Assembly: GCA_964559755.1 (NCBI GenBank)
Contig: CAZLHP010000003.1
Span: 10,465-74,464 of the forward strand
Source of the DNA: an uncultured Candidatus Saccharibacteria bacterium
GTDB taxonomy: Bacteria > Patescibacteriota > Minisyncoccia > Phycocordibacterales > UBA6065
Reading direction: 5' to 3'
Length of the DNA stretch: 64,000 nt
The translations under genes and the position numbers were made by a program. The notes under the pieces were generated by a model, which made no database searches, was not told where the DNA came from, and saw only the letters and a list, made by a program, of their open reading frames with translations. Positions 4,372 to 49,966 of the stretch are shown here, piece by piece. Position 1 is the stretch's first letter. Each line of letters begins with the position of its first letter.

Positions 4372-5295
4372 TTACTTAGACTTCTTGTTGTGAAATTGCT
4401 TATGAATATTACGTAGATGTTTGTCGGTAACGTGAGTATAAATCTGAGTTGTACCAATGTGAGCATGCCCAAGAAGAGCTTGCACTGAGCGCAAATCAGC
4501 ACCATTTGATAACAAATCTGTTGCAAAACTGTGTCTAATAACGTGTGGAGTTACTTTCTTGGAAATACCAGCCTTGATCGCATAGTATTTCACGATACGC
4601 TCAATAGACCTGCGCGTAAGAGGAAAGGAGTCATCATTGCCTTTTTTTTCATATGCCAGCTTCACAAAAAGAGCATCGTCTACGTCACCACGCTTATCAA
4701 GATAGGCTTTTATTGCCTTACGAGCATCGTCTGATATAAAAACCACACGAACTTTGTCACCCTTACCCCTAATAGAAATCTCGTCGGCAGACAAATCAAT
4801 ATCGCGCGAGAGGGAACAGAGCTCAGAAACGCGCAATCCTGTAGAAAACAAAAGCTCTAAAATAGCCTTATCTCTCAAGGATTTAATGTCAGAACCGCTC
4901 GGGACAGCAAGTAAGCGGTGTAAATCATCGTTTGACATGAACTCAATGTGGCGTTCACCGACCTTTGCTAACTCAATCTTGTCTGGAGGAAGAGATGGCA
5001 CGCCTTGGCGCGCTAAATACTTGAGGAATGCCCTCAATGCTATCAGGTAATAATTCTGAGTCTTTTTTTTGAGTGTTTCCCCCGTGGCTTTGTTATTGCC
5101 CGTAGATTGCCTATTGAGCCACAGCCTGAACTCTCGTACTGACGTATCGGTAATGTCAGAAGGGTTATCTTTCTTTAAAAAAGCAATAAAACGAGTGAGG
5201 TAACGGTCGTAATTCTGTACGGTATTCAAACTACGGCCTTTTTCAATCTCAACGTATTCGAGAAATTGTTGTTTCAAAGCTTTGAGAGATGCCAT
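4372..5295 (-). CDS. xerC: Tyrosine site-specific recombinase XerC/XerD family
   Basis: N-terminal SAM-like domain and C-terminal HVIRHSFATDLLSNGADLRSVQALLGHAHIGTTQIYTHV with the catalytic R-H-R-Y pattern. Confidence 0.8.
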   Translation of the reverse strand: MASLKALKQQFLEYVEIEKGRSLNTVQNYDRYLTRFIAFLKKDNPSDITDTSVREFRLWLNRQSTGNNKATGETLKKKTQNYYLIALRAFLKYLARQGVPSLPPDKIELAKVGERHIEFMSNDDLHRLLAVPSGSDIKSLRDKAILELLFSTGLRVSELCSLSRDIDLSADEISIRGKGDKVRVVFISDDARKAIKAYLDKRGDVDDALFVKLAYEKKGNDDSFPLTRRSIERIVKYYAIKAGISKKVTPHVIRHSFATDLLSNGADLRSVQALLGHAHIGTTQIYTHVTDKHLRNIHKQFHNKKSK

Positions 5296-6446: not shown

Positions 6447-6520
6447 ATAGCTATCAGAAAAAACCGGAGCACTTCCGGTTTTTTCTATTCTTCAAACTCA
6501 TTTTCCTATACAATAGAGGT

Positions 6521-21089: not shown

Positions 21090-21092
21090 CAT

Positions 21093-21689
21093 ATGGATAA
21101 AAATATTCAAAAAAAATATGAATCTCTGCCTGACGATGTAAGAAAGGCAATTGACTCGACTGAACTGCCTTTAAAGCTTCAGAAAATTTCTTCTGATCAA
21201 GGTCTTCATGTGGATCAAGCAGGAATTCTTGAGGAAGAAGTTGCTTCTGTCATGCTTGGAATAATCCATCCTGACGAGTTCGTAGATGCAATCGAGGAAA
21301 GGCTTGGCATATCAACGGAAAAAGCGATTGATATCACCACATCTGTCAATATGGAGATTATTATACCGATTCGAGAGTCGCTCATGACTCTTCATGAAAA
21401 AGAAAGCTCTATAGAAACCAGAGCTGAGGAAATCTTACCCTCAAAAGAAGAAGTTCTGCACGAAATTGAAAACCCGACCCAAAACGAAGCGCCTAAGAAA
21501 CCATCTACAGAACTCATGGTGGGCAGGCTCACTGGTATAGTTCAAATTCCTGGAGGGAAGAGCCAAATCCCTGTTAAAAAACCTACTCTACCCGCACAAC
21601 CAATACAGCCAATTCAAAAAACTGTTAGCCAGAGCCCGAATGACCAGAGACCTCGATCATCTGACCCTTATAGAGAACCTGTAAACTAG
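21093..21689 (+). CDS. Acidic hydrophilic hypothetical protein of the T4SS-like cluster
   Basis: ORF, translationally coupled (4 nt gap) to the upstream gene. Confidence 0.4.
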   Translation: MDKNIQKKYESLPDDVRKAIDSTELPLKLQKISSDQGLHVDQAGILEEEVASVMLGIIHPDEFVDAIEERLGISTEKAIDITTSVNMEIIIPIRESLMTLHEKESSIETRAEEILPSKEEVLHEIENPTQNEAPKKPSTELMVGRLTGIVQIPGGKSQIPVKKPTLPAQPIQPIQKTVSQSPNDQRPRSSDPYREPVN

Positions 21690-21714
21690 TTTTTAGGTGT
21701 CAGGTTTTAGAAAG
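21689..21714 (+). repeat. Copy 2 of the post-stop motif gtttttaggtgtcaggttttagaaag
   Basis: See 9751-9774. Confidence 0.5.
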
Positions 21715-21777
21715 AAGGGCTTAATGTTATATTGTATGTACTAAAAGCTAAAAGCTTTAACCTCAAACCTTTTACAT

Positions 21778-22218
21778 ATGCGATTTCAAGTTCCACAATT
21801 CATAGAAGTAGAAGATAAAATATTTGGACCTCTCACCCTTAAACAATTCCTATATCTCGCAGGAAGTGGTGGTTTAGCATTTATAGTCTATAGTTTCATT
21901 GGTAATCTTTTTATAACAGCACTGTTTGTCATTCCTATAGCAAGCACAGGAATTGCTTTAGCCTTCTACAAAGTAAACAACAAACCTTTCATTTTTGTAC
22001 TCGAGGCTGCGATTAAATACTATTTTTCTGAAAAACTCTACATCTGGAGGAAAAAAGAAAGACAAGTAATACAAGCGAGCCAAAAAGAAAACTCTGACGT
22101 ATCAAGTCTCTACATTCCAAAACTATCAGACAGCAAACTAAAAGACCTCACATGGAGTCTCGATATAAAACAAGCACAGAATCCAGCACAGGGGAAAGGA
22201 GGAAAGAATACTTTTTAA
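21778..22218 (+). CDS. PrgI/VirB3-like small membrane protein of Gram-positive-type conjugation systems
   Basis: EDKIFGPLTLKQFLYLAGSGGLAFIVYSF followed by a second TM helix; matches the PrgI-family pattern; located just upstream of VirB4. Confidence 0.5.
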   Translation: MRFQVPQFIEVEDKIFGPLTLKQFLYLAGSGGLAFIVYSFIGNLFITALFVIPIASTGIALAFYKVNNKPFIFVLEAAIKYYFSEKLYIWRKKERQVIQASQKENSDVSSLYIPKLSDSKLKDLTWSLDIKQAQNPAQGKGGKNTF

Positions 22219-22304
22219 TAAAAACCTTGGGTATTATAAACAGATTCAATTATTAAATAGTAAGGTATAATTCTTATTGTCATATACTCTATATTTAAAG
22301 CCTC

Positions 22305-22952
22305 ATGCCTTCTCAAGTAAAATCAAAAACATCCCAGGATTTTGTTCCTATAAAAGAAATCCGCCAGAGTACGGTTGTACTCAAAGATGGATCCTTGCGC
22401 GGTGTTGTTATGGCATCCTCGATAAACTTTGCCCTCAAATCAAACGAGGAACAACAGTCTGTTATGTATCAGTTTCAGAACTTTTTGAATTCACTCGACT
22501 TTTCTGTACAAATTTTTATCCAGTCACGTCGTCTCGATATTAGACCATATATAGCCCTTCTCGAAGGGCGTCTCAAAGAACAAGTAGGGGACTTGCTGAA
22601 AATACAAACGAGAGAGTATATAGAATTCATAAAAAACTTTACTGAGAACTCAAACATAATGACAAAAACCTTCTTTGTTGTTGTTCCATATACACCACCC
22701 GTACTCAATTCAAAAACAGGACCAGGATCATTTCTCAGTAAACAAAAACAATCCTCTGCTTCAAATGCAGAAATGAAGCTCGAGCAGTTCGAAGAACACC
22801 GAAGTCAGCTTGAACAGCGTATCAGCGTTGTAGAACAAGGCCTCGTGCGTTGTGGTATCAGAACAATACAACTCGGAACAGAAGAGGTCGTTGAACTTTT
22901 CTACAAAATATTCAATCCTGGAGATACCGAAAAACCAATACCGTTGGCGTAA
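22305..22952 (+). CDS. VirB4/TraE/Orf16-like ATPase, N-terminal fragment (residues 1 to about 210 of a roughly 815 aa protein)
   Basis: QDFVPIKEIRQSTVVLKDGSLRGVVMASSINFALKSNEEQ...LNSLDFSVQIFIQSRRLD follows the conserved N-terminal domain of Gram-positive VirB4 homologs; ends ...ELFYKIFNPGDTEKPIPLA* just after the homology. Confidence 0.6.
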   Translation: MPSQVKSKTSQDFVPIKEIRQSTVVLKDGSLRGVVMASSINFALKSNEEQQSVMYQFQNFLNSLDFSVQIFIQSRRLDIRPYIALLEGRLKEQVGDLLKIQTREYIEFIKNFTENSNIMTKTFFVVVPYTPPVLNSKTGPGSFLSKQKQSSASNAEMKLEQFEEHRSQLEQRISVVEQGLVRCGIRTIQLGTEEVVELFYKIFNPGDTEKPIPLA

Positions 22953-22957
22953 TTAAG

Positions 22958-22989
22958 CTTTTAGGTAATAGGTTTTAGCTTTTAGAAAA
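22958..22989 (+). repeat. Copy 3 of the post-stop motif cttttaggtaataggttttagcttttagaaaa
   Basis: See 9751-9774; lies between the VirB4 N-fragment stop and the Avd-like gene start. Confidence 0.5.
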
Positions 22990-23352
22990 ATGATTAGTTC
23001 CTACAAAGATTTGGTAGTTTGGCAAAAATCCATAGAGCTAGTTAGTGAGATCTATAAAACGACCCAACTATTTCCAAAAGAAGAGATGTTTAGCTTAACC
23101 TCTCAAATACGTCGAGCCGCTATTTCCATACCATCAAACATCGCGGAAGGGAGAGGGAGAAGCACCAGAAAAGACTTTGTACATTTTCTATACATTGCTA
23201 AAGGGTCGCTTTCTGAACTAGAAACTCAACTATTTATCAGCAAAGACCTGCAACTATTACCAAAAGAAAACTTTGATGTGCTTTATCAAAAAACAAGCGA
23301 GATTGGAAAATTATTACATGGTATTATTAATAAGCTAAAAGCTGAAAACTAA
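22990..23352 (+). CDS. Four-helix-bundle protein of the '23S rRNA intervening-sequence protein' / DGR Avd-like family
   Basis: 120 aa; YKDLVVWQKSIELVSEIYKTTQLFPKEEMFSLTSQIRRAAISIPSNIAEGRGR...GSLSELETQL matches the family consensus closely. Confidence 0.8.
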   Translation: MISSYKDLVVWQKSIELVSEIYKTTQLFPKEEMFSLTSQIRRAAISIPSNIAEGRGRSTRKDFVHFLYIAKGSLSELETQLFISKDLQLLPKENFDVLYQKTSEIGKLLHGIINKLKAEN

Positions 23353-23363
23353 AACCTCTCCCC

Positions 23364-25172
23364 ATGGGACTATTTGATTTTTTAAAACCAAAACGCCAAG
23401 GATCGCTCGTAGCACCAGTACTCCCTCAACAAATCTATGAGGCTGGTATTCTAGAGCTCAAAGACGTTATTGCGCCCTCAGCACTCAAGGTCACACCTCG
23501 CGAACTCAATCTAGGAGACAAAATTTGTCGAAGTTTTTTTGTTATATCATATCCACGCTTTCTCACAGAGAGCTGGTTTGCTCCGATCATTAACTTAGAT
23601 AAGGTTTTTAACATATCGATATTCATTCATCCTGTTGAAACAGCAAAGGTTCTCCGTCAGTTTCAGAAAAAAGTGGCTGAAGTACAGAGCCAGATAAACA
23701 TCAGAGAGCAAAAAGGACTTGTGCGTGACCCTATGCTCGATACTGCATACCAAGACCTCGAATCTCTCCGTGACCAGTTGCAACAAGCCCAAGAAAAACT
23801 TTTTGATGTAGGGCTCTACATCACCATCTACGCAGATACTGAGGCAGATCTCGACAAAACAGAGTCGGAGGTTAAATCAATACTTGAATCAAAGCTTGTC
23901 TATGTAAAACCAGCACTTTTTCAACAAGAGCAAGGTTTCCGCTCAAATATCCCCACCGCATCTGACGAGCTTGTTGTACATTCAAAACTCAACTCATCTC
24001 CACTTTCAAGTCTTTTTCCTTTTATTTCATTCGACCTTACGTCCGACAAGGGTATTCTCTATGGAATCAACAGGCACAACTCTTCACTCGTTCTGTTCGA
24101 CCGATTTTCCCTTGAAAACTACAACTCTATAACATTTGCAAAGTCTGGATCAGGTAAATCATATACAACAAAGCTGGAGATATTGAGAACCCTCATGTTT
24201 GATACAGAAGTCATCGTAATAGACCCTGAAAGGGAGTATGAGTACCTTGCCGAAGCGACAGGAGGAAAGTATTTCAACATTTCTCTCAATTCCGAGCATC
24301 ACATCAATCCATTTGAACTTCCTATCGCGCGTGAAGATGAATCTCCTGCAGACGTTTTGAGGTCAAACATTATCAATCTCGTGGGACTCTTTCGTATTAT
24401 GATGGGAGGACTCTCTCCCGAAGAGGACGCGATCATTGATCGTGCTATCACCGAGACCTACGCACTCAAAGACATCACTCCTGATTCTGATTTTGCAAAC
24501 ATAGAACCACCACTTCTTTCTGATTTTGAACTTGTCCTTGCTGGCATGGAGGGAGGGGAGTCTCTCGTGCAACGGCTCACAAAATACACCAAGGGTACCT
24601 GGTCAGGATTCATCAATCGTCCAACAAACGTAGATATCAGTGCAAAATTCATAGTGTTCTCTCTTCGCGACATGGAAGACGAGTTAAAACCAGTAGCAAT
24701 GTATATCGTGACTCACTATATATGGAATGCTGTTCGCAAAAACCTCAAAAAACGCCTCCTTGTTATCGATGAGGCTTGGTGGATGATGCGTTCTGAGGAT
24801 ACTGCATCATTCCTCCTCGGCATGGCGAAACGTGGACGTAAATACTTCCTAGGTCTTGCAACTATCACACAAGACGTTGATGACTTTATGAAATCACCTT
24901 ATGGATTGCCTATTGTTACCAACTCATCTATTCAGATACTCCTCAAACAGTCTCCTTCATCTATCGACAGGCTTCAGCAAACATTCAACCTCACCGATGA
25001 AGAAAAGTACCTTCTTCTCGAGTCAGATGTTGGTGAGGGTATCTTCTTTGTGGGACTAAAACACGTAGCAATCAAAATAATTGCGTCCTATACAGAAGAC
25101 CAAATCATCACCTCAGACCCCTCTCAGCTTTTGGCAATAAAACAAGCGAGAAAGACGGCCGAAGGACTCTAA
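23364..25172 (+). CDS. VirB4/TraE/Orf16-like ATPase, C-terminal fragment carrying the ATPase domain
   Basis: Resumes the homology where the N-fragment stops (FDFLKPKRQGS...DVIAPSALKVTPRELNLGDKICRSFFVISYP); Walker A FAKSGSGKSYTTK, Walker B LLVIDEAWWMM. Confidence 0.75.
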   Translation: MGLFDFLKPKRQGSLVAPVLPQQIYEAGILELKDVIAPSALKVTPRELNLGDKICRSFFVISYPRFLTESWFAPIINLDKVFNISIFIHPVETAKVLRQFQKKVAEVQSQINIREQKGLVRDPMLDTAYQDLESLRDQLQQAQEKLFDVGLYITIYADTEADLDKTESEVKSILESKLVYVKPALFQQEQGFRSNIPTASDELVVHSKLNSSPLSSLFPFISFDLTSDKGILYGINRHNSSLVLFDRFSLENYNSITFAKSGSGKSYTTKLEILRTLMFDTEVIVIDPEREYEYLAEATGGKYFNISLNSEHHINPFELPIAREDESPADVLRSNIINLVGLFRIMMGGLSPEEDAIIDRAITETYALKDITPDSDFANIEPPLLSDFELVLAGMEGGESLVQRLTKYTKGTWSGFINRPTNVDISAKFIVFSLRDMEDELKPVAMYIVTHYIWNAVRKNLKKRLLVIDEAWWMMRSEDTASFLLGMAKRGRKYFLGLATITQDVDDFMKSPYGLPIVTNSSIQILLKQSPSSIDRLQQTFNLTDEEKYLLLESDVGEGIFFVGLKHVAIKIIASYTEDQIITSDPSQLLAIKQARKTAEGL

Positions 25173-25211
25173 AAAAGAAAAAACGAATCAAAAACACACC
25201 TTCCACATGGT

Positions 25212-26243
25212 GTGTTTTGCGTCATGAGCTTTGTGATATACTTATGCAGTATGGTTCGCACACCACTCATATTTTTTTTATCGTTTTTATTTTTCGCTCT
25301 TTCACCGTCTCTTTATGCGCAAACCCCACCAGGAAGTGGGGGAGTGAGTATCAGTCTCGTTCCTGAAAACCCAAAACCCAACCAGACCGTTACAGTAAAA
25401 ACTCAAAGCTTTAGCACAAATCTTGATAATGCGACTTTTAAATGGTCGGTGAACGGAAAAGTCGTTGCAGAAGGTGTTGGCATGAAACAATTTGATGCGC
25501 AAACAGGAAAAAGTGGATCAATCACAAGTATTCAAGTTGAAATAAGCACTCAAAACCTGGGCGTAATCCGCGACAGCATAACTTTTCGACCAACAGAAGT
25601 AACGCTCCTGTGGGAATCCGATGGTTACCTTCCTCCTTTTTACAAAGGAAGAGCTTTCTACACACTCGGAGGATCACTCAAGGTGGTAGCAATACCTGAG
25701 TTTTTTAGTTCACAAGGAAAAAGGATGAATCCAAAGGATCTTGTATACACATGGAAAAAGAACGGCGAGGTTGTTGCAGACGCTTCGGGATACGGAAAAG
25801 ATTTCTTTATTTCAGACAAAACATCATACCTACGAGATGGTAATGATATAAGCGTAGAGGTTTCAAGTCCCCGAGAGAACATTACAGGAGGAGCATCACT
25901 AGTTGTTGAACCACAACAACTAGAAATACTCATGTATGAAAAGAGCCCTCTCTATGGAATACTTTTTAATAAAAATCTCCCAACGTCGTTCAGTCTTACC
26001 AACGAAGAAATAACTCTCTATGCGGTACCTTTCTTTTTCTCAACACAAACACAATCCTTAGGGGAACTTTCTTTTGAGTGGACAATGAACAACAACCCTA
26101 TCCGAAATGCTGCAGGTAGCAACGAGTTAACCCTACGAAAAGAAACGGGACAAGTAGGTAGCTCAGACATCGGCCTAACAATTCAACACCCTCGCAAGGT
26201 GCTTCAGGGAACAACTATGAAGACTCGCATACTTTTTCAATAA
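25212..26243 (+). CDS. Secreted hypothetical protein (signal peptide, beta-rich)
   Basis: ORF with a hydrophobic N-terminus ...FFALSPSLYAQ. Confidence 0.4.
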   Translation: MFCVMSFVIYLCSMVRTPLIFFLSFLFFALSPSLYAQTPPGSGGVSISLVPENPKPNQTVTVKTQSFSTNLDNATFKWSVNGKVVAEGVGMKQFDAQTGKSGSITSIQVEISTQNLGVIRDSITFRPTEVTLLWESDGYLPPFYKGRAFYTLGGSLKVVAIPEFFSSQGKRMNPKDLVYTWKKNGEVVADASGYGKDFFISDKTSYLRDGNDISVEVSSPRENITGGASLVVEPQQLEILMYEKSPLYGILFNKNLPTSFSLTNEEITLYAVPFFFSTQTQSLGELSFEWTMNNNPIRNAAGSNELTLRKETGQVGSSDIGLTIQHPRKVLQGTTMKTRILFQ

Positions 26244-26246
26244 CAC

Positions 26247-27395
26247 ATGAATACGTATTTTAAAAGAATTACCTTAGGAGTCTGTATTTTTTTAGGACTT
26301 TGTTTGTATACAAGTGTTTTTGCTCTTGATTACATACCCCTTACCACCATTCCAGGTGTTACTGTAAAAGGTACTGCCCTGAGGACTCCCCAAAACCTCG
26401 TCCTTGGTATATATACAGCTTCAATAGGTATTGCATCAATTCTTGCAGTCATCATGGTCATTATTGGTGGTATAAAATACACCACAATGGAATCCTTCAA
26501 TGCAAAAACTGATGCAAAAAAACAAATAACATCAGCCTTCCTAGGACTTGTACTTCTCCTTGGTTCATACCTTCTCCTGAGAACAATAAACAAAGACCTT
26601 GTTGAGTTTGATACAAAACTACCTTCATCAGGAGGACAAGGCCTTGAAAGATTAAGCGCAGAAAGAGAGGCTATTAATGTTCAAATACACGACCTAAGAA
26701 GAAGCTATGCCGCCGCAGACGCAAAAACAAAAACTGCTCGAGAAGAAGCAGCAACCCTCCTTGCTGAAAAAAACACCCTTACTGCACGTTACAACATCAT
26801 AGGCGACAAGAACTCTCCTGAAGCAATAGAGCTGGCTAGACAAATAACATCAATCACATCAAGACATGCAAGCAAAACACAAGAAGTCGCGGATCTTGAT
26901 AATGCGGCCCAGAAACTTAGACGTGATGGTTTAGCCCTTATATATACACAACAAATACGAACGGAGCTCTCTGCTGGAAATTTTGATGTGGCAAATGATA
27001 TACTTCAGAAAACTATTAATCTAGAGCAACAAAAAATACAACTGCTCAAGGACCAAAACGCCCCTCAAGAAGAAATTCAAAAAGCTGAAGTAAACAAGAC
27101 CCACACTGTTGCACAGCTATCTTCAGAAGCAGACACGGCGCGAGCACTAAACGAACTCGGTAAAAACCTTGTATCAATAGACAAAACCAAGGTTACAGAA
27201 TTACGCATAAAAATAATGGCAGATGCTCTCAGGGCGGTTTCTTCTATTAACCAGACAGATCCGACAAAAGCGGCCGCTCTACGAAAAGAGGCACTTGATA
27301 ACATCAAAAAAATCGACGATGCTTTAAATGCTAAATATAGATGCACACAATCAACAACACCGACTTTTGAAACCTTAGGAACTTGTAGTATTTAA
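26247..27395 (+). CDS. VirB2/TrbC-like pilin-type N-terminus fused to a long coiled-coil C-terminal region
   Basis: Signal/TM, then LVLGIYTASIGIASILAVIMVIIGGIKYT ... ITSAFLGLVLLLGSYLLL (two hydrophobic helices as in T4SS pilins), then about 270 aa of heptad-rich sequence. Confidence 0.4.
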   Translation: MNTYFKRITLGVCIFLGLCLYTSVFALDYIPLTTIPGVTVKGTALRTPQNLVLGIYTASIGIASILAVIMVIIGGIKYTTMESFNAKTDAKKQITSAFLGLVLLLGSYLLLRTINKDLVEFDTKLPSSGGQGLERLSAEREAINVQIHDLRRSYAAADAKTKTAREEAATLLAEKNTLTARYNIIGDKNSPEAIELARQITSITSRHASKTQEVADLDNAAQKLRRDGLALIYTQQIRTELSAGNFDVANDILQKTINLEQQKIQLLKDQNAPQEEIQKAEVNKTHTVAQLSSEADTARALNELGKNLVSIDKTKVTELRIKIMADALRAVSSINQTDPTKAAALRKEALDNIKKIDDALNAKYRCTQSTTPTFETLGTCSI

Positions 27396-27400
27396 AAACC

Positions 27401-28615
27401 ATGTCAAAAAAAATATTTATAACACTCATACTTATCGCTCTCATCTCTCTTGTTTTTGGAGTATGGTTTTTAATGATGGACAAGAATCCAAACGATACGC
27501 TTAGCCAAACTGACGAAGAAAATCTTTTTCCTTTTGGACAAGGCGGAGTAAATACACCAATAAACCCCGGCACAACAAATCAGACAACTACTACTCCTGA
27601 CTTTGATTCAGACTATATACCTCGTTTGAGAAAAATATCAGAGACACCAGTAGCTGGGGGAGTCGTATTCACCAACAAACTCGGAACGATTATTCGTTAT
27701 GTTGAACGAGCGACAGGACATATCTTTGAAACATACAGCGATTCTATTGAAGTAAAAAGAATATCAAACACCACAATACCTAAAATAGAAGAAGCGTTGT
27801 GGTCAAATCAAGGTAACCAAGTACTTTTCCGTTATTTACGCGATGACAATCAAACAATTCGTACCTTCTATGCACGAATAAGCACCACAACTGTTCCGGA
27901 TCAGGCTATCGAGGGTATATTTCTCCCAGACAACATAGCAAAGATAAGCGTTTTTGGAGACAGAATGTTCTATACATCAAAAACAGAGACAGGATCAACA
28001 GGGATCATCGCAAACATTGATGGGACAAAGAAAACAGCACTCATAAACTCTCCCTTTAACACATGGAGTCACACATGGAGTCAACCAGGATCGGTTTTGC
28101 TTTTCCCGAGCCCAAGCTACCTAGCAACAGGATTCATCTACACCCTCAACACAGCGTCAGGTGAGTATATAAAAGTGAGCCCAGGGGCTCCTGGCCTCTC
28201 AGGACTCGGCAACAAAGACGGATCTCTCATACTTATGAGCGGTAAAAAAGGGTTAGGAGTAGGTACAGCTGTTCTCAACACAAAAACAGGAGAGACTACA
28301 AACCTTTCTCTACAAACAATGACCGACAAGTGCGTCTGGAGCACGCTTGATGCCGTAGTGCTCTACTGTGCAATCTCTCAAGCATTACCGCAAAACAACT
28401 ATCCTGATGCGTGGTACCAAGGAAAGGTAACTACCAATGACTCCGTTTGGAAAATAAACACCGAAACAGGGGACACCGAAGAAATACTTAGTCCTCAAAT
28501 AGAAGCCCTCGAAGAGATTGATATGGTAAACCTTTCTCTCGACGCACAAGAAAATGTCTTACTCTTCATCAACAAAAAAGACTTAACCTTGTGGGCATAC
28601 AGCCTTCGCTTCTAA
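27401..28615 (+). CDS. Membrane-anchored/secreted hypothetical protein (beta-propeller-like)
   Basis: ORF with an N-terminal TM; last gene of the cluster. Confidence 0.4.
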   Translation: MSKKIFITLILIALISLVFGVWFLMMDKNPNDTLSQTDEENLFPFGQGGVNTPINPGTTNQTTTTPDFDSDYIPRLRKISETPVAGGVVFTNKLGTIIRYVERATGHIFETYSDSIEVKRISNTTIPKIEEALWSNQGNQVLFRYLRDDNQTIRTFYARISTTTVPDQAIEGIFLPDNIAKISVFGDRMFYTSKTETGSTGIIANIDGTKKTALINSPFNTWSHTWSQPGSVLLFPSPSYLATGFIYTLNTASGEYIKVSPGAPGLSGLGNKDGSLILMSGKKGLGVGTAVLNTKTGETTNLSLQTMTDKCVWSTLDAVVLYCAISQALPQNNYPDAWYQGKVTTNDSVWKINTETGDTEEILSPQIEALEEIDMVNLSLDAQENVLLFINKKDLTLWAYSLRF

Positions 28616-28651
28616 ACAAAAAACCACTCGATCTCTCGAGTGGTTTTTTGT

Positions 28652-29419
28652 TTAGTTAATAGGAGCTAACTTCTCCTGATCTTTTTTAGATAATTCCTTT
28701 CTAACAAAAAGCTCTTGGAAGATGGTAAAGATATTACTTGTCGTCCAGTATATAGCGAGAGCACCGGCTGCGTGGTACGAAACAAAGAAAATAAAAAGAG
28801 GGAGGAAATATTTCATCTGAAGATTCATATTACGCGCCAAATCATCAGAAAAACTTGCCCCTTCTTTACGAGGTTGAGTTTTTGGAGAAGCAAGATATGC
28901 GTATATAAACTGTGTTATGCCGGCACAAAGCGCCAAAACATAACTTTTTTGTGTGACATCAAAGATACCGAGGAATATCTCATTTATAGCGGTAGGAACC
29001 TTAATAAAAGAATAGAGAATCTCTGTATTAAAAACCTCTAAACCATTGGAATAAAAAACTTTGTATAAAGCAAAAAGTATTGGGATCTGAATAAGGAGCA
29101 AGAGAATGCCAGAAAAAGGGTTTATATTCTTTGTTTTATAGTATTCCATCACCTTGAGAGCCTGCTCCTGTTTGTTTGGATATTTTTCTTTTATAGAACG
29201 AATGTCTTTATCAGAAAGCTTCATGATTATCTGAGTTCTCACAGCTTTACGCGTCAAAGGAAACAAAATAACTTTTACAAACAAAGTGAGAATTACCACA
29301 ACAATACCAACATCAGCCCACGGAAGGGCGCCTATGAGAAACACAAAACCATTATAAAGAGGGTCGAAAACAAACGTGTGATATAAATATGAAAACATAG
29401 AGTTAATACTACTGCACAT
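28652..29419 (-). CDS. yidC: Membrane protein insertase YidC/Oxa1 (short form)
   Basis: ILTLFVKVILFPLTRKAVRTQIIMKLSDKDIRSIKEKYPNKQEQALKVMEYYKTKNINPFSGILLLLIQIPILFALY; start set at the ATG at 29419. Confidence 0.8.
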   Translation of the reverse strand: MCSSINSMFSYLYHTFVFDPLYNGFVFLIGALPWADVGIVVVILTLFVKVILFPLTRKAVRTQIIMKLSDKDIRSIKEKYPNKQEQALKVMEYYKTKNINPFSGILLLLIQIPILFALYKVFYSNGLEVFNTEILYSFIKVPTAINEIFLGIFDVTQKSYVLALCAGITQFIYAYLASPKTQPRKEGASFSDDLARNMNLQMKYFLPLFIFFVSYHAAGALAIYWTTSNIFTIFQELFVRKELSKKDQEKLAPIN

Positions 29420-37167: not shown

Positions 37168-37392
37168 AAAGCCGGAGCCTGACGAGGCGAGGATGGGTCG
37201 CAGAAATTTTCACCAGAAAATTATCTGTGACAGCGAGTTCGTTAGAACCGCTCACTTGCGAAGCACGTGAGATATGGGGTGGGTCCCATATCGTAAAGCC
37301 GGAGCCTGACGAGGCGAGGATGGGTCGCAGAAATTTTCACCAGAAAATTATCTGTGACAGCGAGTTCGTTAGAACCGCTCACTTGCGAAGCA
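37168..37392. repeat. Perfect 98 nt tandem direct repeat (copies 37168-37265 and 37295-37392, 29 nt spacer); copy 2 contains the last 8 codons of ruvC
   Basis: Both copies read aaagccggagcctgacgaggcgaggatgggtcgcagaaattttcaccagaaaattatctgtgacagcgagttcgttagaaccgctcacttgcgaagca. Confidence 0.7.
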
Positions 37393-37845
37393 AGTGAGCC
37401 CCACCGCAATCGCGTCGTATTCGTCGTCGTATTCTATTTCCTTGGTGATTACTACAAGTTTTGGAATCATAGAGATGATGTGTTCCTTGTCGCTTTTTCC
37501 ATAACCAGTCACTGCAACTTTTATTTGTCCTGGTCCGTATTCAAAAACAGGCAGAGAGTGTGCTGCGGCTTGAAAGAGTATAACGCCTCGCGCTTCCGCT
37601 ACGAGTAACGCGGTTTTTTGGTTTGTGCTAAAAAAGAGAGATTCAATCGCCAGAGCGTCTGGTTTGTGCTCAGCTATTATTTTTTCAATTTCTTTTCCTA
37701 TGAGACAAAGTCTTTCGCCGTGTGAAAGTTTTGTTGAAGTTTTAAAACATTCAGAAAAGAGCACTTTTTCTTTGGTGCTTTTTTGTTTTTCAATAATAGC
37801 GATCCCAAGACGTTCATAACCAGGATCGATTGAGATGAGTTTCAT
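37369..37845 (-). CDS. ruvC: Holliday junction resolvase RuvC
   Basis: MKLISIDPGYERLGIAII... RNase H-fold catalytic pattern. Confidence 0.85.
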   Translation of the reverse strand: MKLISIDPGYERLGIAIIEKQKSTKEKVLFSECFKTSTKLSHGERLCLIGKEIEKIIAEHKPDALAIESLFFSTNQKTALLVAEARGVILFQAAAHSLPVFEYGPGQIKVAVTGYGKSDKEHIISMIPKLVVITKEIEYDDEYDAIAVGLTCFASERF

Positions 37846-45488: not shown

Positions 45489-46202
45489 ATGTTTTATTTT
45501 ATTTACGGAAACAACAAAGAGAAAACAAGGAGCAAGGCTCACGAATTGCTCGATATTATGAAGGGAAAACGCCCACAGTCTGCTTTTGTTCATGTGGACT
45601 CTGATTCGTTTTCTCCTGCGCTTGTTGATGAATTGTCGGGTAGCCAGGGTTTGTTTGATCACAAGAGTATTGTTTTTCTCGATGGTGTGATGGCAGACGC
45701 AGAGAGTAGAGATGTGCTTTTAGGCAAGGTATGTGAACTCAAAGAGTCAGATAATGCTTTTGTACTACTTGAAACGAGTGCGACAAAAGAAGTTTTGAAA
45801 AAAATAGAAAAGGGCGCCGAAAAAGTTTTTGTATTTGAAGATGAGAAAGTAAAAAAAGAAAGTTCGAGTTTGTTTTCGCTTGCAGATGCTTTGGGCAGGA
45901 GAGATAGAAAGGCTCTGTGGATGGGGGTGGTGAGCGCTTTCGAAAATGAAGTTGCTCCCGAAGAGTTGCACGGAATATTGTTTTGGCAGGTAAAAAGTAT
46001 GATTCTCGCGACGCTCACAAAAAAAGCCGAAGAGGCAGGACTCAATCCGTATGTTTTTACAAAGTCTCAGGGTTTTGCACGAAATTTTAAAAATGATGAG
46101 TTGCTTTCTTTGTCCGCAGAGTTGGTAGATATGTACCATGACGCCCATCGGGGAAAGCGTAATTTTAAATTAGCCCTCGAGCAGTTTGCTTTAGGTGTTT
46201 AA
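45489..46202 (+). CDS. holA: DNA polymerase III delta subunit-like (short)
   Basis: 237 aa; holA-like N-terminal pattern; weak call. Confidence 0.45.
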   Translation: MFYFIYGNNKEKTRSKAHELLDIMKGKRPQSAFVHVDSDSFSPALVDELSGSQGLFDHKSIVFLDGVMADAESRDVLLGKVCELKESDNAFVLLETSATKEVLKKIEKGAEKVFVFEDEKVKKESSSLFSLADALGRRDRKALWMGVVSAFENEVAPEELHGILFWQVKSMILATLTKKAEEAGLNPYVFTKSQGFARNFKNDELLSLSAELVDMYHDAHRGKRNFKLALEQFALGV

Positions 46203-46238
46203 AAAACCACGCTACTGGAGCGTGGTTTTCTCTAGCTC
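46182..46238 (+). repeat. Left copy of a perfect 57 bp direct repeat (last 21 nt of holA plus its terminator hairpin); the right copy is at 49470-49526
   Basis: cagtttgctttaggtgtttaaaaaaccacgctactggagcgtggttttctctagctc is identical at both positions. Confidence 0.8.
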
Positions 46239-46255
46239 AAAATATGTAAAAAATT

Positions 46256-46360
46256 CCCTCTGCATTTATACGGACTTGGGACCGTTTCTTTCTTGCGAAA
46301 GAAGTTGCATTACATTGTGCGAATTTTATGGTTATACTCGCAAACCCCTGAATAATCAGG
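46256..46360 (+). repeat. Roughly 100 nt repeat family: copy 1 (copy 2 at 47141-47245 is near-identical; a degenerate copy 3 is at 47959-48030)
   Basis: ccctctgcatttatacggacttgggaccgtttctttcttgcgaaagaagttgcattacattgtgcgaattttatggttatactcgcaaacccc; its internal hairpin tctttc-ttgc-gaaaga is replaced in copy 3 by the compensatory ttctct-gttta-agagaa. Confidence 0.7.
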
Positions 46361-46363
46361 GTA

Positions 46364-46705
46364 TTACTCCACAAGGTGCACAGTTCTGTACGTGCGGAAT
46401 GTATCGATCCTGGTGTTAACTAGGACCCCCTCTTTGTCAAAAGAGTCGATTTTGTCGTAATAAACGACAACCTCAACCTTGTCACCCTCCGTGGCTTTCT
46501 CCTCTTTGCCTCTATAGCTGACCACTTTTTCTGAAGGAGGCACCCGGACCGACCAGGTGTACGATCCGTCTTTTTCCGGCCGAACTTGGGTGATGATTCC
46601 AGGGAATTCCTGGTGTTCTGTGGTGCGGACCCACTTTACCTCCCTCGAACAACCACACAGAGCAATAATCGCGACGCCTACTAATAACAAGATGAATTTC
46701 TTCAT
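46364..46705 (-). CDS. Lipoprotein (113 aa)
   Basis: Signal peptide with the lipobox ALCGC. Confidence 0.5.
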   Translation of the reverse strand: MKKFILLLVGVAIIALCGCSREVKWVRTTEHQEFPGIITQVRPEKDGSYTWSVRVPPSEKVVSYRGKEEKATEGDKVEVVVYYDKIDSFDKEGVLVNTRIDTFRTYRTVHLVE

Positions 46706-46763
46706 GTTTAAATTCCTTCCTCAACTCTTGTGTCATCTCAACATGAGACGCTTAGCAAAAGTT

Positions 46764-46828
46764 TTCGGTTTCGGAAGTGAGTGCGTATAGCACGGTTGCG
46801 CGCTCGCTTCCGAAACCGAATTGTTTTT
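46764..46828 (+). other. 22 bp-arm inverted repeat (20/22 matches) followed by ttgttttt: a very stable terminator-like hairpin
   Basis: ttcggtttcggaagtgagtgcg ... cgcgctcgcttccgaaaccgaa. Confidence 0.5.
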
Positions 46829-46830
46829 AC

Positions 46831-46888
46831 AAAGAACTTCCGTTTCGTCCTTTTGGACTCATCAGTCGGAATACACATTCCGAGACAG
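46831..46888 (+). repeat. 58 nt repeat family: copy 1 (copy 2 at 47539-47597, about 90% identical)
   Basis: aaagaacttccgtttcgtccttttggactcatcagtcggaatacacattccgagacag; contains the perfect hairpin cggaat-acac-attccg. Confidence 0.65.
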
Positions 46889-47246
46889 GGAGCGTTTTTA
46901 AAGAGAACGCTCAGGGAGCCATCTAGGCTCAAACTCTTTGAAATATAAGAGAGATCGTGGCTTCGATCTTTCGGCATCTCTTATTGCCGGCAATCTATCC
47001 ATTAGATAGTGGATTCAATTGCACATCTTTAGGTTAAGATGTTGCCGTCTTCTAGACGGTCTAAACCTGCGGGCAGTTTCTAATGTCTGCCTCACCACCT
47101 TTTCCCCTCTTCTTTCGAAGTGACTTCGGGGCGGGAAGTACCCTCTGCATTTATACGGACTTGGGACCGTTTCTTTCTTGCGAAAGAAGTTGCATTACAT
47201 TGTGCGAATTTTATGGTTATACTCGCAAACCCCGGAACGATCCAGA

Positions 47247-47489
47247 TTATTTTTTCTTGGCTGACCCTCCGAATCCTCGAAGTACTACACGAAGCCCTAT
47301 CACTATCACCAGTAGTACCACACCTGTTTCAACTACAGGCCACAGGGCACGCACCAAGTTAGAGACTGCGGTCTTTCCCATATCTGGGTTAAATGACAAG
47401 GCCACAGCTAAAAGGATGCCGAATGTCCACAAGGATCTCTTCGGTGTCCCGAACAAAAAAATCAACCACTGTCTAATGTACGAGTTCAT
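47247..47489 (-). CDS. Small two-TM membrane protein (80 aa) with a KKK tail
   Basis: ORF with two clear hydrophobic helices; competes with a plus-strand ORF that spans repeat copy 2. Confidence 0.35.
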   Translation of the reverse strand: MNSYIRQWLIFLFGTPKRSLWTFGILLAVALSFNPDMGKTAVSNLVRALWPVVETGVVLLVIVIGLRVVLRGFGGSAKKK

Positions 47490-48132
47490 GTGTTAAATTC
47501 TTTTTAAAAGAAACTAACATCTGAACTCGTACTAATTTAAAGAACTTTCTGTTTCGCTCTTTTGAGCTCATCAGTCGGAATACACATTCCGAGACAGAGC
47601 ACCGAATTTAAAATTCGGAGGATTTTTGTGAGTTTTCTCTCAGAAGCACAACGTGCTTCACGTTCCGATTTAAAGCAATCTGGATAGCGTGCCATTCAAT
47701 CGGAATGGTGGCGGATTAGGTTCTGTTGCCAAGTGAATCACACTCCGCGTGCTGTATTTCTACAGGCGCAGGCAATTCGCTCCTTAGCGAACCGGGATCA
47801 CTTGGAAAAGCTCCACAGTGCAATCTGGTTGAACCAGATACACGTAGATAGCCTCCGAAGTGACCCGCCGGATGTACCGGGCCATGTTGTGAAGTAGAAA
47901 AACATTTAGCTTTTCTTTTATTTCACTTTCACCCTCACAACTAAATTCAAAGATCATTCCTCTGCATTTATATGGGCTTGGAACCATTTCTCTGTTTAAG
48001 AGAAGCTGCATTACTAATACCTGTTGACCACCACAGGTGAGGAGTGTTCTTTACGTAAAACACATAAAACGTTTTTGCCTCTTTTTACAGAACCGGACTT
48101 TGTTCGAACCTTTTTATAGGTGTTAATACCCC

Positions 48133-48477
48133 TCACGAGACAGACCAGAGGCTAAATACAAATTTCGCCCCTGCCACCTCCTCAGTGGTGTACTCGTGCC
48201 GATTTTCCAACCGGGGAAGGCCGGTAACGCCCATGACCAGCAGACGGTCACCGGGCGCGAGCGCCACGCTCGGAGCCTTACTGGGAATCTCGACTTTGAG
48301 CCCAAAGCGTTGCTCCATCACATCGATGGAGGCCTTATGGCTGGGGTTGAGACAACTAACGACGCCGTCCTCCATGACGTCTCGTGCCTGATCGACCGTA
48401 AGGTCGAGTTTGGCAATCGTGACGTTTCCGGGGAACATCGAGGGCGCTAGGCCGAAGCCGAAGTAGATCTTATTCAT
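48133..48477 (-). CDS. DUF1874-family protein (AcrIII-1 / Crn2-like cyclic tetra-adenylate ring nuclease homolog), markedly GC-rich relative to its surroundings
   Basis: 114 aa; MNKIYFGFGLAPSMF...VTIAKLD...VSCLNPSHKASI...LPRLENRH...KFVF aligns, from memory, with SIRV1 gp29 / STIV B116, including the catalytic His (..SH..) and Glu (..RLE..) positions; GC about 55-60% by eye against roughly 40% background. Confidence 0.55.
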   Translation of the reverse strand: MNKIYFGFGLAPSMFPGNVTIAKLDLTVDQARDVMEDGVVSCLNPSHKASIDVMEQRFGLKVEIPSKAPSVALAPGDRLLVMGVTGLPRLENRHEYTTEEVAGAKFVFSLWSVS

Positions 48478-48685
48478 GGTATCTATTTTCCTGTACTGGT
48501 GTATTGTTTGGGCACACCTGGTTAAAACCCGTTACTGTGCGAAATTCAACGAACTGTTACTTTGTAATTATAGCATAGTGAACAGAATTGTCAATATATT
48601 TACTTTAAAATACTCCCATGATTTACTTATATGTAAGCGTTTTAATGAAAATGGCTCTATTTAATAATTAATCTGTCACAAAGTT

Positions 48686-49456
48686 ATGACAAAAATAGAT
48701 GATAAGGTGTTAATCGACTCTGGGTTAACCAAAGAGCAAGCAAAAATTTACCTGTATCTTTTGGATGCCGGACTATCGAACGCCAAGGTAATTGCTCAAA
48801 AAACAAAGGTGGGAAGGGCACTAACATACAAAGTTATTGAACAATTGATAGAGATGGGTCTAATAGAGAAACGGGAAGACATTGCGAAAGTGGCTTTGTT
48901 TAAAGCCAGCCATCCATCTGCCATAAAAAACATTTTAGAAAAAAACAAACAAGTGGTTGATTTTGCAAATGAAAGTTTTAGCAAGTCATATGGCATGCTT
49001 TGTTCGCAATTCAATATTTTAAACGGGAAACCTCATGTAAAGTTTTTGGAAGGACTAGATGGTTTGCAAGAAATGTATAACGACATCCTTGATGAAGGTC
49101 AGGACATAAAACTTTTTCGTTCCTTTCTCGATCACAAAGATGAGCAGGTGACGAAAATATTACGTGAGCACATGAAGAAACAGGCGACAAAAGGAATACG
49201 AGTTAAAATGATCGGTCCACACAGAAATGATGTGACTCTTGAAGAGTTGAAAAAGAAAGACATCGAGCGTTTGGTTACAAGAAAAACGATTCATGAGGGC
49301 TTTCTTATTCCTTCACAGGTAATCGTTTATGGTAATAAAGTTTCGATAACTGATTTTAAAAATTTAATAATAACAATCATTGAAAATGAATGCGTAAAGG
49401 ATTCTTTTGAAAGAATGTTCGATTATACATTTGATAACCTAAAGGATACTTATTAA
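48686..49456 (+). CDS. TrmB-family transcriptional regulator
   Basis: N-terminal TrmB-type wHTH LTKEQAKIYLYLLDAGLSNAKVIAQKTKVGRALTYKVIEQLIEMGLIEK plus a C-terminal effector-like domain. Confidence 0.55.
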   Translation: MTKIDDKVLIDSGLTKEQAKIYLYLLDAGLSNAKVIAQKTKVGRALTYKVIEQLIEMGLIEKREDIAKVALFKASHPSAIKNILEKNKQVVDFANESFSKSYGMLCSQFNILNGKPHVKFLEGLDGLQEMYNDILDEGQDIKLFRSFLDHKDEQVTKILREHMKKQATKGIRVKMIGPHRNDVTLEELKKKDIERLVTRKTIHEGFLIPSQVIVYGNKVSITDFKNLIITIIENECVKDSFERMFDYTFDNLKDTY

Positions 49457-49469
49457 TCTGTTTGCTGGA

Positions 49470-49526
49470 ACAGTTTGCTTTAGGTGTTTAAAAAACCACG
49501 CTACTGGAGCGTGGTTTTCTCTAGCT
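49470..49526 (+). repeat. Right copy of the 57 bp direct repeat (see 46182-46238)
   Basis: Identical 57-mer, immediately after the trmB-like stop. Confidence 0.8.
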
Positions 49527-49939
49527 CCAGCTTGAGAAGGAGTTGGAGTTGTTCGTTTGGTTTTTCTTCGTGCGTGTTGTGGCAATGACAGGTGCATCTC
49601 CAGCCACCGTATACACCCGGGGGAGAACTTTGACCAATTGCGCAGAGCGAGTGGTCACCTTTTTCACATTCAGGAGTGATTCGTAGGAATACCATAGTTA
49701 GGGGAGCATTCTTTCCTAAGGGTACTTGAGGCGGAGAGGAAGTCAACGGAGAGGGAGGGGTAGCTGGATATCGATCGTTACGGGGTCAGAATCAGTGTTG
49801 GAATCTCCCGCGCCTCTCAACTCGCCGTCGCTCGTTTCGGGCTGGGCACCAGCTCGCATGATTTTTTACTAAAAATCATTGGCTCCGCTGTTCGATTCCA
49901 AACGCGAGCAAAATTGTTTGCTCGCTCTAGCCACACAAA

Positions 49940-49966
49940 AACCGCCCGAAGGCGGTTTGTTTTTTG
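49940..49966 (-). terminator. Terminator downstream of the minus-strand tRNA-Lys
   Basis: aaaccgcc-ttcg-ggcggttt followed by a T-run on the minus strand. Confidence 0.6.

Follow-up and report, generated by a model that had tools for sequence, protein, structure and literature searches.

A GC-rich ring-nuclease-like gene beside a TrmB-type regulator and a predicted twister and hammerhead ribozyme array in a Candidatus Saccharibacteria contig

The Locus

This analysis concerns a small GC-rich gene and its surroundings in a stretch of 64,000 nucleotides from an uncultured Candidatus Saccharibacteria bacterium (contig CAZLHP010000003.1 of assembly GCA_964559755.1), the whole of which is called the window below. 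The gene, at positions 48133 to 48477 of the minus strand, encodes a protein of 114 amino acids (aa) with the fold of the DUF1874 family, and it heads a succession of predicted self-cleaving ribozymes and small open reading frames (ORFs) within a segment of 3.3 kb, here termed the island (Table 1). Read along the minus strand, the order is a promoter, a 5′ untranslated region (UTR) of ~90 nt, the gene, 116 nt, the first twister ribozyme, a structured RNA of 353 nt, the first hammerhead ribozyme, and a hairpin with the 80-aa ORF; the second twister, a 245-nt RNA, the second hammerhead, a hairpin and the 113-aa ORF follow as a second unit, and the array closes with the third twister and the palindromic terminator of holA. 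The repeating unit is thus [twister, structured RNA, hammerhead, hairpin, ORF], in two copies of 816 and 885 nt.

An earlier reading, made by a model from the letters only (the sequence-only reading), had put the gene at about 55-60% GC in host DNA of roughly 40%, and a windowed GC calculation gave 57.4% for the gene vs 41.2% for the 64 kb. The gene is the GC extreme of the window: the maximum falls on it, and only 0.03% of 345-nt windows are as GC-rich. By codon position its GC is 0.61/0.41/0.70, the value of 0.70 at third positions (GC3) comparing with a mean of 0.38 (standard deviation 0.07) for 64 ORFs of the window, and its codons, read directly, end mainly in C.

The TrmB-type regulator that the same reading had seen beside the gene was borne out by a match to PF01978 of 43.3 bits (cut-off 25.6). 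Its AlphaFold2 model (pLDDT 86.6) is matched by Foldseek to TrmBL2 over ~265 columns with E=1.6e-12, and its C-terminal domain resembles NucT/Zucchini/PLD3, being a degenerate PLD-like fold as in TrmBL2. A role of this regulator as a sensor of cyclic oligoadenylate through a CARF-like domain was considered and rejected, given that the C-terminal domain is PLD-like and that Csa3/CasR matches only the winged helix.

Table 1. Features of the island and its borders, in order of window coordinates.
Feature	Coordinates	Strand	Remarks
Left direct-repeat copy	46176..46238		Last 8 holA codons and palindromic terminator 46203-46229
Twister type P1 no. 3	46252..46316	minus	RF03160 62.3 bits, E=7.5e-13; own model R2 93.5 bits; last array element
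113-aa ORF, lipoprotein-type signal peptide (MKKFILLLVGVAIIALCGC...)	46364..46705	minus	Variable cargo; GC3 0.59
Hairpin, 29-nt arms	46757-46827		Upstream of 113-aa ORF
Hammerhead type III no. 2	46833..46891	minus	RF00008 42.9 bits, E=3.6e-7; own model R1 73.4 bits
Multi-hairpin spacer	46892..47136	minus	245 nt, twister 2 to hammerhead 2; minimum free energy (MFE) -80.3 kcal/mol, z=-4.55
Twister type P1 no. 2	47137..47201	minus	RF03160 60.7 bits, E=2e-12; R2 90.7 bits
80-aa ORF, probably small membrane protein	47247..47489	minus	Variable cargo
Hairpin, 27-nt arms	47478-47532		Covers start of 80-aa ORF
Hammerhead type III no. 1	47542..47600	minus	RF00008 44.3 bits, E=1.4e-7; R1 79.2 bits
Structured segment	47601..47953	minus	353 nt between twister 1 and hammerhead 1; no convincing ORF
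Twister type P1 no. 1	47954..48017	minus	RF03160 60.8 bits, E=2e-12, full-length; R2 82.9 bits; 116 nt past stop codon
Recombination patch	48106..48361	minus	~58 mismatches/~255 nt vs strains L083-L086; codons ~40-114 and 27 nt of 3′ UTR
Probable ring-nuclease gene (DUF1874 fold, Csx16/Crn2-like)	48133..48477	minus	114-aa ORF, ATG to TGA; first cistron of unit
Sigma-70 consensus promoter	48567..48594	minus	TTGACA, 16 nt, TG-TATAAT; 12/12 positions; ~90 nt upstream of ATG
TrmB/TrmBL2-like regulator	48686..49456	plus	Divergent; winged helix, coiled coil, PLD-like C-terminal domain
Right direct-repeat copy	49465..49527		8 nt past TrmB stop codon; present in close strains too

Fold and Family of the Protein

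From sequence alone the assignment of the protein to DUF1874 is weak, and it becomes visible mainly through structure and profiles. A single-sequence phmmer search against the PDB sequences returned nothing significant, and NCBIfam holds no family for the protein. The homologues found number 168 at 56-91% identity, the named ones belonging mostly to Candidatus Taylorbacteria or Patescibacteria, and precomputed matches to PF08960 (the Pfam DUF1874 family) are attached to many of them. A profile of 44 homologues matches AFV3-109 in the PDB (E=0.0023); with one of 55 representatives, taken at the 50% identity level, AFV3-109 is reached at 1e-4, SIRV1 ORF114/gp29 at 5e-3 and the Crn2 domain of Marinitoga Csx1-Crn2 at 0.012. 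PF08960 itself matches 13 of the 55 representatives at E<=0.01, with a best value of 6.4e-8. The best single-sequence profile match of the window protein is to the PADLOC profile of Csx16 (PDLC01147, a profile with no curated cut-off; E=2.6e-5, 22.9 bits, profile positions 22-96 of 105), which at E<=0.001 matches only six of the 55. The window protein fits this profile about as closely as it fits Pfam DUF1874. Csx16 has been confirmed as a ring nuclease specific for cyclic tetra-adenylate (cA4), with a structure resembling AFV3-109, by Hoikkala et al. 2025 (PMC12409355).

The DUF1874 fold, named in the sequence-only reading, is recovered in the AlphaFold2 monomer model (pLDDT 92.4, pTM 0.84). 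The significant Foldseek matches in the PDB are DUF1874 structures only, namely AFV3-109, gp29 with cA4, STIV B116, ORF114 and Csx1-Crn2 (entries 2j6b, 6scf, 2j85, 2x4i and 8y7f/8y7g), at E 1.5e-6 to 1.7e-4 and TM 0.62-0.73, the next and unrelated match following at E=0.49; gp29 (6scf) and STIV B116 are the two structures with which that reading had proposed a comparison. In a viral structure library the model matches STIV and a protein of phage THSA-485A, the latter being a phage homologue tested as AcrIII-1 (bioRxiv 10.1101/778746).

The motifs listed there, an N-terminal K-x-Y, VxIxKxD, a His and an R-L-E loop, were recovered in alignment with gp29 by hidden Markov model (HMM). His47 of the window protein falls on His47 of gp29, Arg89 on Arg85, and the Ser or Thr three residues past the His on Thr50; the same His is aligned with the His of AFV3-109 and with His495 of the Marinitoga protein. 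His47 of gp29 is the general acid, and its exchange in H47A cuts catalysis more than 2500-fold (bioRxiv 10.1101/778746). Among the 44 close homologues, His47, Arg89, Arg93, Glu95 and the NPSH and GLPRL motifs are invariant, and Glu91 is retained in all except one (43/44); over the wide family of 55 representatives the His is kept in 48 and Arg89 in 46. On this evidence of fold, profile and residues, the protein belongs to the DUF1874/Csx16 ring-nuclease fold with an intact catalytic His, and it represents a divergent clade between Pfam DUF1874 (AcrIII-1/Crn2) and Csx16, found mainly in chromosomes of the candidate phyla radiation (CPR), or Patescibacteria. Fold and residues make activity on cA4 a reasonable inference.

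The Ribozyme Array

The repeats that the sequence-only reading had left unrecognised inside the island match ribozymes in Rfam, three of them twisters and two hammerheads, and each sits on the minus strand, which is the strand of the gene. All five lie just below the Rfam gathering scores (67.2 for RF03160 and 48.5 for RF00008), which is why a default gathering scan lists only tRNAs; they were found by an E-value threshold. The Rfam matches of the two hammerheads run over 47600-47546 and 46891-46837, and both carry a GUC triplet, CUGAUGAG and CGAAAC (core CUGAUGA...GAAA). Hammerhead cores also emerged from the repeats found downstream of homologues in other loci. Once aligned, 20 hammerhead copies drawn from 13 sources support a structure of three stems with stem III open: 99.7% of the cells pair, and compensatory changes occur in 13 of 15 pairs, with no slid control coming close. 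Twister copies that are independent number only four, too few for a covariation test, and the three window matches are full-length at 60.7-62.3 bits. Covariance models of our own (R1 for the hammerhead and R2 for the twister) detected no further copy of either ribozyme elsewhere in the 64 kb, and the Rfam ‘DUF1874 motif’ gave no match at E<=1 around the gene.

The RNA between the first twister and the first hammerhead is predicted to be strongly folded, with an MFE of -128 kcal/mol and z=-6.55 against shuffles, and the 75-aa ORF that can be drawn mechanically through it begins inside the twister. Neither of the two cargo ORFs resembles anything known: the 80-aa ORF has no homologue in 72 loci and no match in Pfam, PHROG or NCBIfam, and the 113-aa ORF has no homologue in the loci and no family match in Pfam or PHROG. 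No terminator-like site was found between the stop codon of the gene and the first ribozyme, the only one on the minus strand inside the array being a weak 6-pair stem at 46952-46969, and the terminator at 46203-46229 is able to end both holA and the minus-strand array. The two long, near-perfect hairpins that stand between a hammerhead and the next start codon (46757-46827 and 47478-47532) may sequester the translation start. After cleavage, the segments from twister to hammerhead are predicted to be RNAs of ~320-430 nt with 5′-OH and 2′,3′-cyclic-phosphate ends, which makes them candidates for circularisation.

Differences between Close Strains

Five short contigs from close strains (L082-L086) were compared with the window. 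One of them, L082, has the layout of the window at 98.8% identity. Three others, L083, L085 and L086, each from a different data set, have only one twister after the gene, and it continues directly into window 47198->46247 at 99.8-100% identity. What these three lack is the first unit in its entirety, 816 nt from 48017 to 47202 comprising twister 1, the 353-nt RNA, hammerhead 1 and the 80-aa ORF. The junction falls within the twister sequence, and the absence of a whole unit at such a junction suggests that ribozyme sequences are where units are gained, lost or exchanged.

The gene itself departs from this near-identity. Compared with the strains, TrmB is 98.8% identical and the intergenic region 97.6-98%, with 84.9% for the DUF1874 ORF, whose 52 mismatches include 39 at third codon positions and bring 10 amino-acid changes. 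The mismatches are not spread evenly: the first 115 nt of the ORF hold one, and a patch of ~23% divergence then begins between flanks that are 98-99% identical, spanning the catalytic His and the lid loop. Such a patch is the footprint of recombination (gene-conversion-like) with a distant allele, and its position between near-identical flanks indicates that alleles of the gene are exchanged by recombination.

Relatives and Conservation of the Arrangement

A distribution scan, with one GTDB genome per species, placed relatives at 42-73% identity to the window protein in 66 species loci, nearly all of them CPR, with Taylor-, Lipton-, Uhr-, Magasanik-, Yanofsky-, Vogel-, Falkow-, Kaiser-, Adler-, Doudna-, Morani-, Staskawicz- and Saccharibacteria among the lineages. 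An exhaustive profile search widened the family to 340 clusters at 50% identity, and nine contigs of IMG/VR carry relatives.

The pairing with the regulator recurs across this range. Of 68 distinct loci, 30 have a TrmB-like gene no farther than 5 kb from the homologue, and in 17 it is divergent and adjacent, ~100-370 nt upstream, Saccharibacteria and Moraniibacteriota included. Hammerheads are present in 12 of these 17. The hammerhead covariance model, built from the 20 copies, was run over 776 kb from 69 sources (the window and the 68 distinct loci) and gave 31 matches at E<1e-9. The window holds two of these and 16 other loci the remaining 29, all on the strand of the homologue. Most lie no more than ~2.2 kb downstream of it; L015, L029 and L054 have one upstream. 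Rfam confirms hammerheads in six loci, one of which, in L009, passes the RF00008 gathering score with 49.4 bits, and adds a twister in L010, the only locus besides the window in which the twister model finds copies. Twelve hammerhead-free CPR loci showed no Rfam ribozyme at gathering score; a search of eight further loci at E<=0.5 returned nothing beyond the hammerheads already known in L015 and L029; and no known Rfam ribozyme was seen in the non-CPR and IMG/VR (phage-like) loci. The idea that ribozymes accompany the gene everywhere was accordingly rejected, 52 of the 69 sources having no hammerhead, as was the idea that the cassette ORFs are conserved between loci, these being unrelated and without family match.

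Three observations were made on RNAs in other loci. Hammerhead-free loci of the Uhrbacteria type carry a conserved element, CCTCGCCGCGTACGGGATACGCGGAATCACGAGGACACTCTTCCC, after the gene (L005, 10346-10415), which is found likewise in the first ~70 nt past the stop codon of the homologue in L019, L020, L023, L024 and L027. It forms a nested hairpin with a GGGA loop that could pair with a downstream UCCC, has no Rfam match at E<=0.5, and could be another structured RNA or ribozyme class in the same position. In L018 a DUF3800-IX RNA (6482-6550; RF02968, 42.1 bits, gathering 36.8) ends the hammerhead array downstream of the DUF1874 homologue. In L001 the third hammerhead of the array (11497-11555) stands ~50 nt ahead of the start of the gene for the housekeeping methylase SpoU, so that the SpoU mRNA may arise by read-through and ribozyme cleavage.

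Composition and Genomic Setting

The sequence-only reading had concluded from the GC content that the gene was foreign, and here the wider comparison leads elsewhere. In each of the 72 loci fetched, the homologue surpasses its locus in GC. Its GC3 lies above the average for the other ORFs in 58 of 59 distinct loci, topping them all in 47, and follows the GC3 of the host with a slope of 0.87 (r=0.68), the offset being +0.24 on average. As the excess appears in 58/59 loci and tracks the host, GC-richness is a trait of the family, and a composition that follows the host with a constant upward offset marks the gene as resident. Taken alone, GC-richness would wrongly have labelled the gene a recent import, which is a lesson of method.

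The position of the module points the same way. In L001, a contig of 681 kb from a distant relative, it occupies the same slot between holA and spoU within ~17 kb of conserved gene order (RuvC, YebC, RuvB, T2SSE, TsaE, PolA, HolA, [TrmB/DUF1874/array], SpoU, a ~310-aa ORF, Fpg and RuvA), the two genomes being so far apart that SpoU is 56% and HolA 24% identical (holA was identified in the window by TIGR01128, E=1e-10). The TrmB gene inside the island has a host-like GC3 of 0.35. ORF, Pfam and PHROG scans of the island revealed no integrase, capsid, terminase or other phage gene; no integrase lies in or beside it, the only one in the window being Xer-like (4372-5295). A recently acquired foreign gene is not supported. 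What remains of the earlier ‘foreign’ label is the divergent patch within the gene, which shows that alleles have been exchanged. One of two processes probably maintains the GC-richness. The first is selection on a transcript expressed at a high level, with which the consensus promoter and the codons ending mainly in C agree; the second is GC-biased gene conversion at a recombination hot spot, which frequent allelic recombination would fit.

Proposed Role and Its Alternatives

Regulator, gene and array form a conserved CPR module, consisting of a TrmBL2-like regulator, a strong promoter, a ring-nuclease-like gene and ribozyme-bounded exchangeable units. Jointly with this description it is proposed, with slightly better than even confidence, that the protein cleaves cA4 or a near relative in a His-dependent manner. 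It is probably a homodimeric, metal-independent phosphodiesterase, in which His47 and the lid loop with R89 would open cA4, or a related small cyclic or linear oligoadenylate, to products with 2′,3′-cyclic phosphates. The gene is probably strongly expressed as the lead cistron of a transcript of ~2.4 kb, which the five ribozymes would cut into RNAs with 5′-OH and 2′,3′-cyclic-phosphate ends, and the TrmBL2-like protein probably controls the shared intergenic region. The module is probably an old, mostly vertically kept accessory locus, anti-defence or signal-quenching in its likely function, with exchangeable downstream cargo.

A number of observations weigh against this proposal, and they are gathered here. 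The profile check suggested in the sequence-only reading came out divided: the window protein scores 18.8 bits with PF08960 (E=0.0019), short of the gathering score of 26, and it is the family profiles that match gp29 and AFV3-109. No PHROGs family matches the protein, nor does tblastn against 50,697 GenBank phages (a search in which its phage-like relative from L078 obtained one weak match, at 26% identity). Of the two catalytic positions named there, the His is well placed on His47 of gp29; the acidic lid residue shifts among positions 91, 92 and 95 across the wide family, leaving the equivalence of the Glu to Glu88 of gp29 uncertain. Asn8 and Ser11, which contact the ligand in gp29, are Phe8 and Ala11 in the window protein, and with the lid residue unfixed and these two replaced, cA4 may not be the ligand. 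Hammerheads occur in only 17 of the 69 sources, so that the ribozyme link covers only part of the family, and co-transcription, ribozyme cleavage and regulation by TrmB are inferred from sequence.

The defence context adds to these points. No Cas10, CARF or SAVED protein is encoded in the 64-kb window, and a CRISPR array is missing from it too, just as the sequence-only reading had remarked on the lack of type III CRISPR in view; four relatives, each viewed over 20 kb, likewise showed no Cas10, CARF or SAVED protein, CRISPR array or type III locus. PADLOC matches in the window were rejected as defence genes, since they correspond to UvrD (GajB models), PolA (DRT models) and the HD domain of the CCA-adding enzyme, and the large ORFs of the window that have no known function gave no defence match. 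CPR bacteria mostly lack CRISPR. Ring nucleases are seen as enzymes that switch type III CRISPR signalling off or that viruses use to counter it, and a conserved ring-nuclease-like clade of CPR bacteria with neither Cas10 nor CARF nearby implies an unrecognised source of cyclic oligoadenylate, in the organism or its host, or a different substrate.

The last group of counter-arguments concerns mobility. The island is indeed bounded by repeats, as had been claimed from the letters: a direct repeat of 63 nt, 97% identical between its copies at 46176-46238 and 49465-49527, encloses the 3.3-kb segment. The module is inverted in the window relative to L001, in the same holA-spoU slot. The clade also extends beyond CPR chromosomes: in L078 a member sits on a phage-like contig with a repressor, an SSB and an integrase, and in L047 another lies next to an IS21 element and a tRNA gene on a Melainabacteria contig of 3.4 Mb, so that some mobility is conceivable. 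The palindromic terminator within the flanking repeat might permit recombination in either orientation.

These last facts are what a recent import would be built on, in which a mobile element of 3.3 kb or a decayed provirus brought a viral-type AcrIII-1 from a GC-richer donor. The repeat duplicates the 3′ end of holA with its terminator at both ends of the segment in the manner of attL/attR; ribozyme clusters are typical of prophage regions (PMC3088659); relatives stand on IMG/VR contigs, L078 among them, and in L047 beside an IS21 element and a tRNA gene; the DUF1874 gene and the cassette ORFs are GC3-rich in both the window and L001; and the recombination patch lies within the gene. Against it, the GC excess is family-wide and tracks host GC, with a TrmB inside the island whose GC is host-like or lower, and the same slot is occupied in a genome whose HolA is only 24% identical. 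The family, moreover, is 50-90% identical across CPR classes, with TrmB identity falling in step, and 50,697 GenBank phage records hold no match. The narrower claim that the island is a prophage was rejected, there being neither integrase nor structural genes and no family match for the cassette ORFs. A recent import of this kind is considered unlikely.

Lower again in probability is the possibility that regulator, gene and ribozyme-bounded units constitute a previously undescribed, integron-like cassette platform of CPR bacteria, in which twister and hammerhead ribozymes mark the boundaries of exchangeable units and the protein acts not on CRISPR messengers but on ribozyme products. Its substrates would be RNAs with 2′,3′-cyclic-phosphate and 5′-OH ends or small circular RNAs, which it might bind, trim, open or close. 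The same chemistry, an attack by a 2′-OH that yields a 2′,3′-cyclic phosphate, underlies both ring nucleases and self-cleaving ribozymes (bioRxiv 10.1101/778746; PMC6765202), and no source of cyclic oligoadenylate is in view. Every significant hammerhead is on the strand of the gene and adjacent to it, and the units, with their structured RNAs (z=-4.6 and -6.6), are gained or lost whole with twisters at the junction. For a ‘DUF1874 motif’ RNA, recurrence from one intergenic region to the next has been described, in the manner of attC sites (PMC5737381). It is acknowledged as an open question why the gene neighbours of twister ribozymes are also those of hammerheads (PMC6765202), and a cassette platform, if real, would explain why they keep the same ones. 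The ligand of gp29 is, however, fully enclosed by the dimer in a pocket sized for a 4-nt ring (bioRxiv 10.1101/778746), and the 52 sources without hammerhead and the non-CPR relatives without Rfam ribozyme show that the protein functions without ribozymes. No recombinase or reverse transcriptase lies nearby, and where the hammerhead precedes the gene (L015, L029 and L054) the gene appears as if it were itself one cassette.

Least probable of all is that the fold was kept and its function changed, leaving a non-catalytic ligand binder that serves either as a sponge or alongside the TrmBL2-like protein, as its partner or co-regulator: the conserved pairing with TrmB (30/68 loci within 5 kb), the second, protein-binding role of the DUF1874 homologue SIRV2 gp37 as inhibitor of a host methyltransferase (bioRxiv 10.1101/2023.01.10.523387), the lack of ring-nuclease activity in the related candidate Csx15, which may be a sponge (PMC12409355), and the ligand-contact residues that differ from gp29 would suit it, but a catalytic His that is invariant in close and kept in 48/55 distant homologues argues for retained catalysis, and the degenerate PLD-like C-terminal domain of TrmB bears no sign of a nucleotide sensor.

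Other Features of the Window

Three further regions of the window deserve a record. Between the right direct repeat and a tRNA-Lys gene lies a GC-rich stretch (49501-49965, up to 52% GC), on the minus strand of which an 81-aa Cys/His-rich ORF (..CTCHCHNTHEEK..) overlaps the repeat by 27 nt; it is kept in strain L083 and has no family match. Just upstream of the RuvC gene region, and overlapping its start, 1.8 copies of a 127-nt unit stand in succession at 37168-37398 with 99% identity. Encoded together at 21000-28700 are a P-loop ATPase of TraG/VirB4 type (23364-25172), a protein that carries a type IV secretion pilin domain (26247-27395) and several proteins with signal peptides, a cluster that resembles the type IV secretion-like system described for Patescibacteria.

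Comparison with Known Systems

With AcrIII-1 and Crn2 the window protein shares the fold (TM 0.62-0.73), the size class of ~110 aa and the aligned His, lid Arg and Ser/Thr. It differs from them in being only 13-21% identical, in matching no PHROG and in having Asn8 and Ser11 of gp29 replaced. The setting differs as well: the gene is CPR-chromosomal, paired with TrmB and followed by ribozymes, a context neither viral nor of type III CRISPR. Crn2 is rare in type III loci (7 loci), AcrIII-1 is found in 36 phage genomes, and a clade that is chromosomal throughout the CPR thus occurs in another setting than either. To Csx16 the protein is linked by its profile match and by the resemblance of both to AFV3-109; Csx16, in contrast, is defined by type III CRISPR loci, and none accompanies the window gene.

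The regulator has the winged helix, the long coiled coil and the PLD-like domain of TrmBL2/TrmB (PF01978; PDB 5bpi, 3qph), but it is bacterial (CPR) and not archaeal, is 13-15% identical, and has no detected sugar-binding subdomain. Csa3/CasR is similar in the winged helix alone, the window regulator having no CARF domain.

As to the ribozymes, clusters of hammerheads and twisters beside accessory genes in prophage-like regions of bacteria are described by Perreault et al. 2011 (PMC3088659) and Roth et al. 2014 (as reviewed in PMC6765202). In prophage regions, hammerhead clusters stand on either side of single genes whose identity varies, and one such cluster surrounds the anti-restriction gene ardA, beside a marR regulator, in a prophage of A. 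tumefaciens (PMC3088659). That twister ribozymes occupy the gene neighbourhoods of hammerheads has causes ‘not yet determined’ (PMC6765202). No paper was found in the literature searched that links hammerhead or twister ribozymes to CPR bacteria; the gene lists of Roth 2014 and Weinberg 2015 lay outside the search and may mention DUF1874. The locus offers a compact and testable case of the association between ribozymes and genes, having a conserved lead gene from a family that works by 2′-O-transesterification, a conserved regulator and regular units, and natural strains that differ by exactly one unit add to its testability. Like the prophage clusters, the array is one-stranded, mixes twister and hammerhead ribozymes and flanks small changing genes, and it stands beside a winged-helix regulator (compare marR/ardA) and a gene of anti-defence type. 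Unlike them, it belongs to a CPR host and has no integrase or phage genes; its lead gene and TrmB pairing are conserved across classes, and its elements follow a regular order of twister, structured RNA, hammerhead and ORF.

Among the literature searched, the only link between a DUF1874 gene and a structured RNA is the ‘DUF1874 motif’ of Weinberg et al. 2017 (PMC5737381), which recurs in consecutive intergenic regions and was compared with attC sites. The array is like that motif and like an integron in having a recurring structured element between unrelated small ORFs with one strong promoter upstream, and it is further like an integron in that whole units are present or absent between close strains. 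It differs from an integron in lacking an integron integrase, and in that its recurring elements are ribozymes by their Rfam matches.

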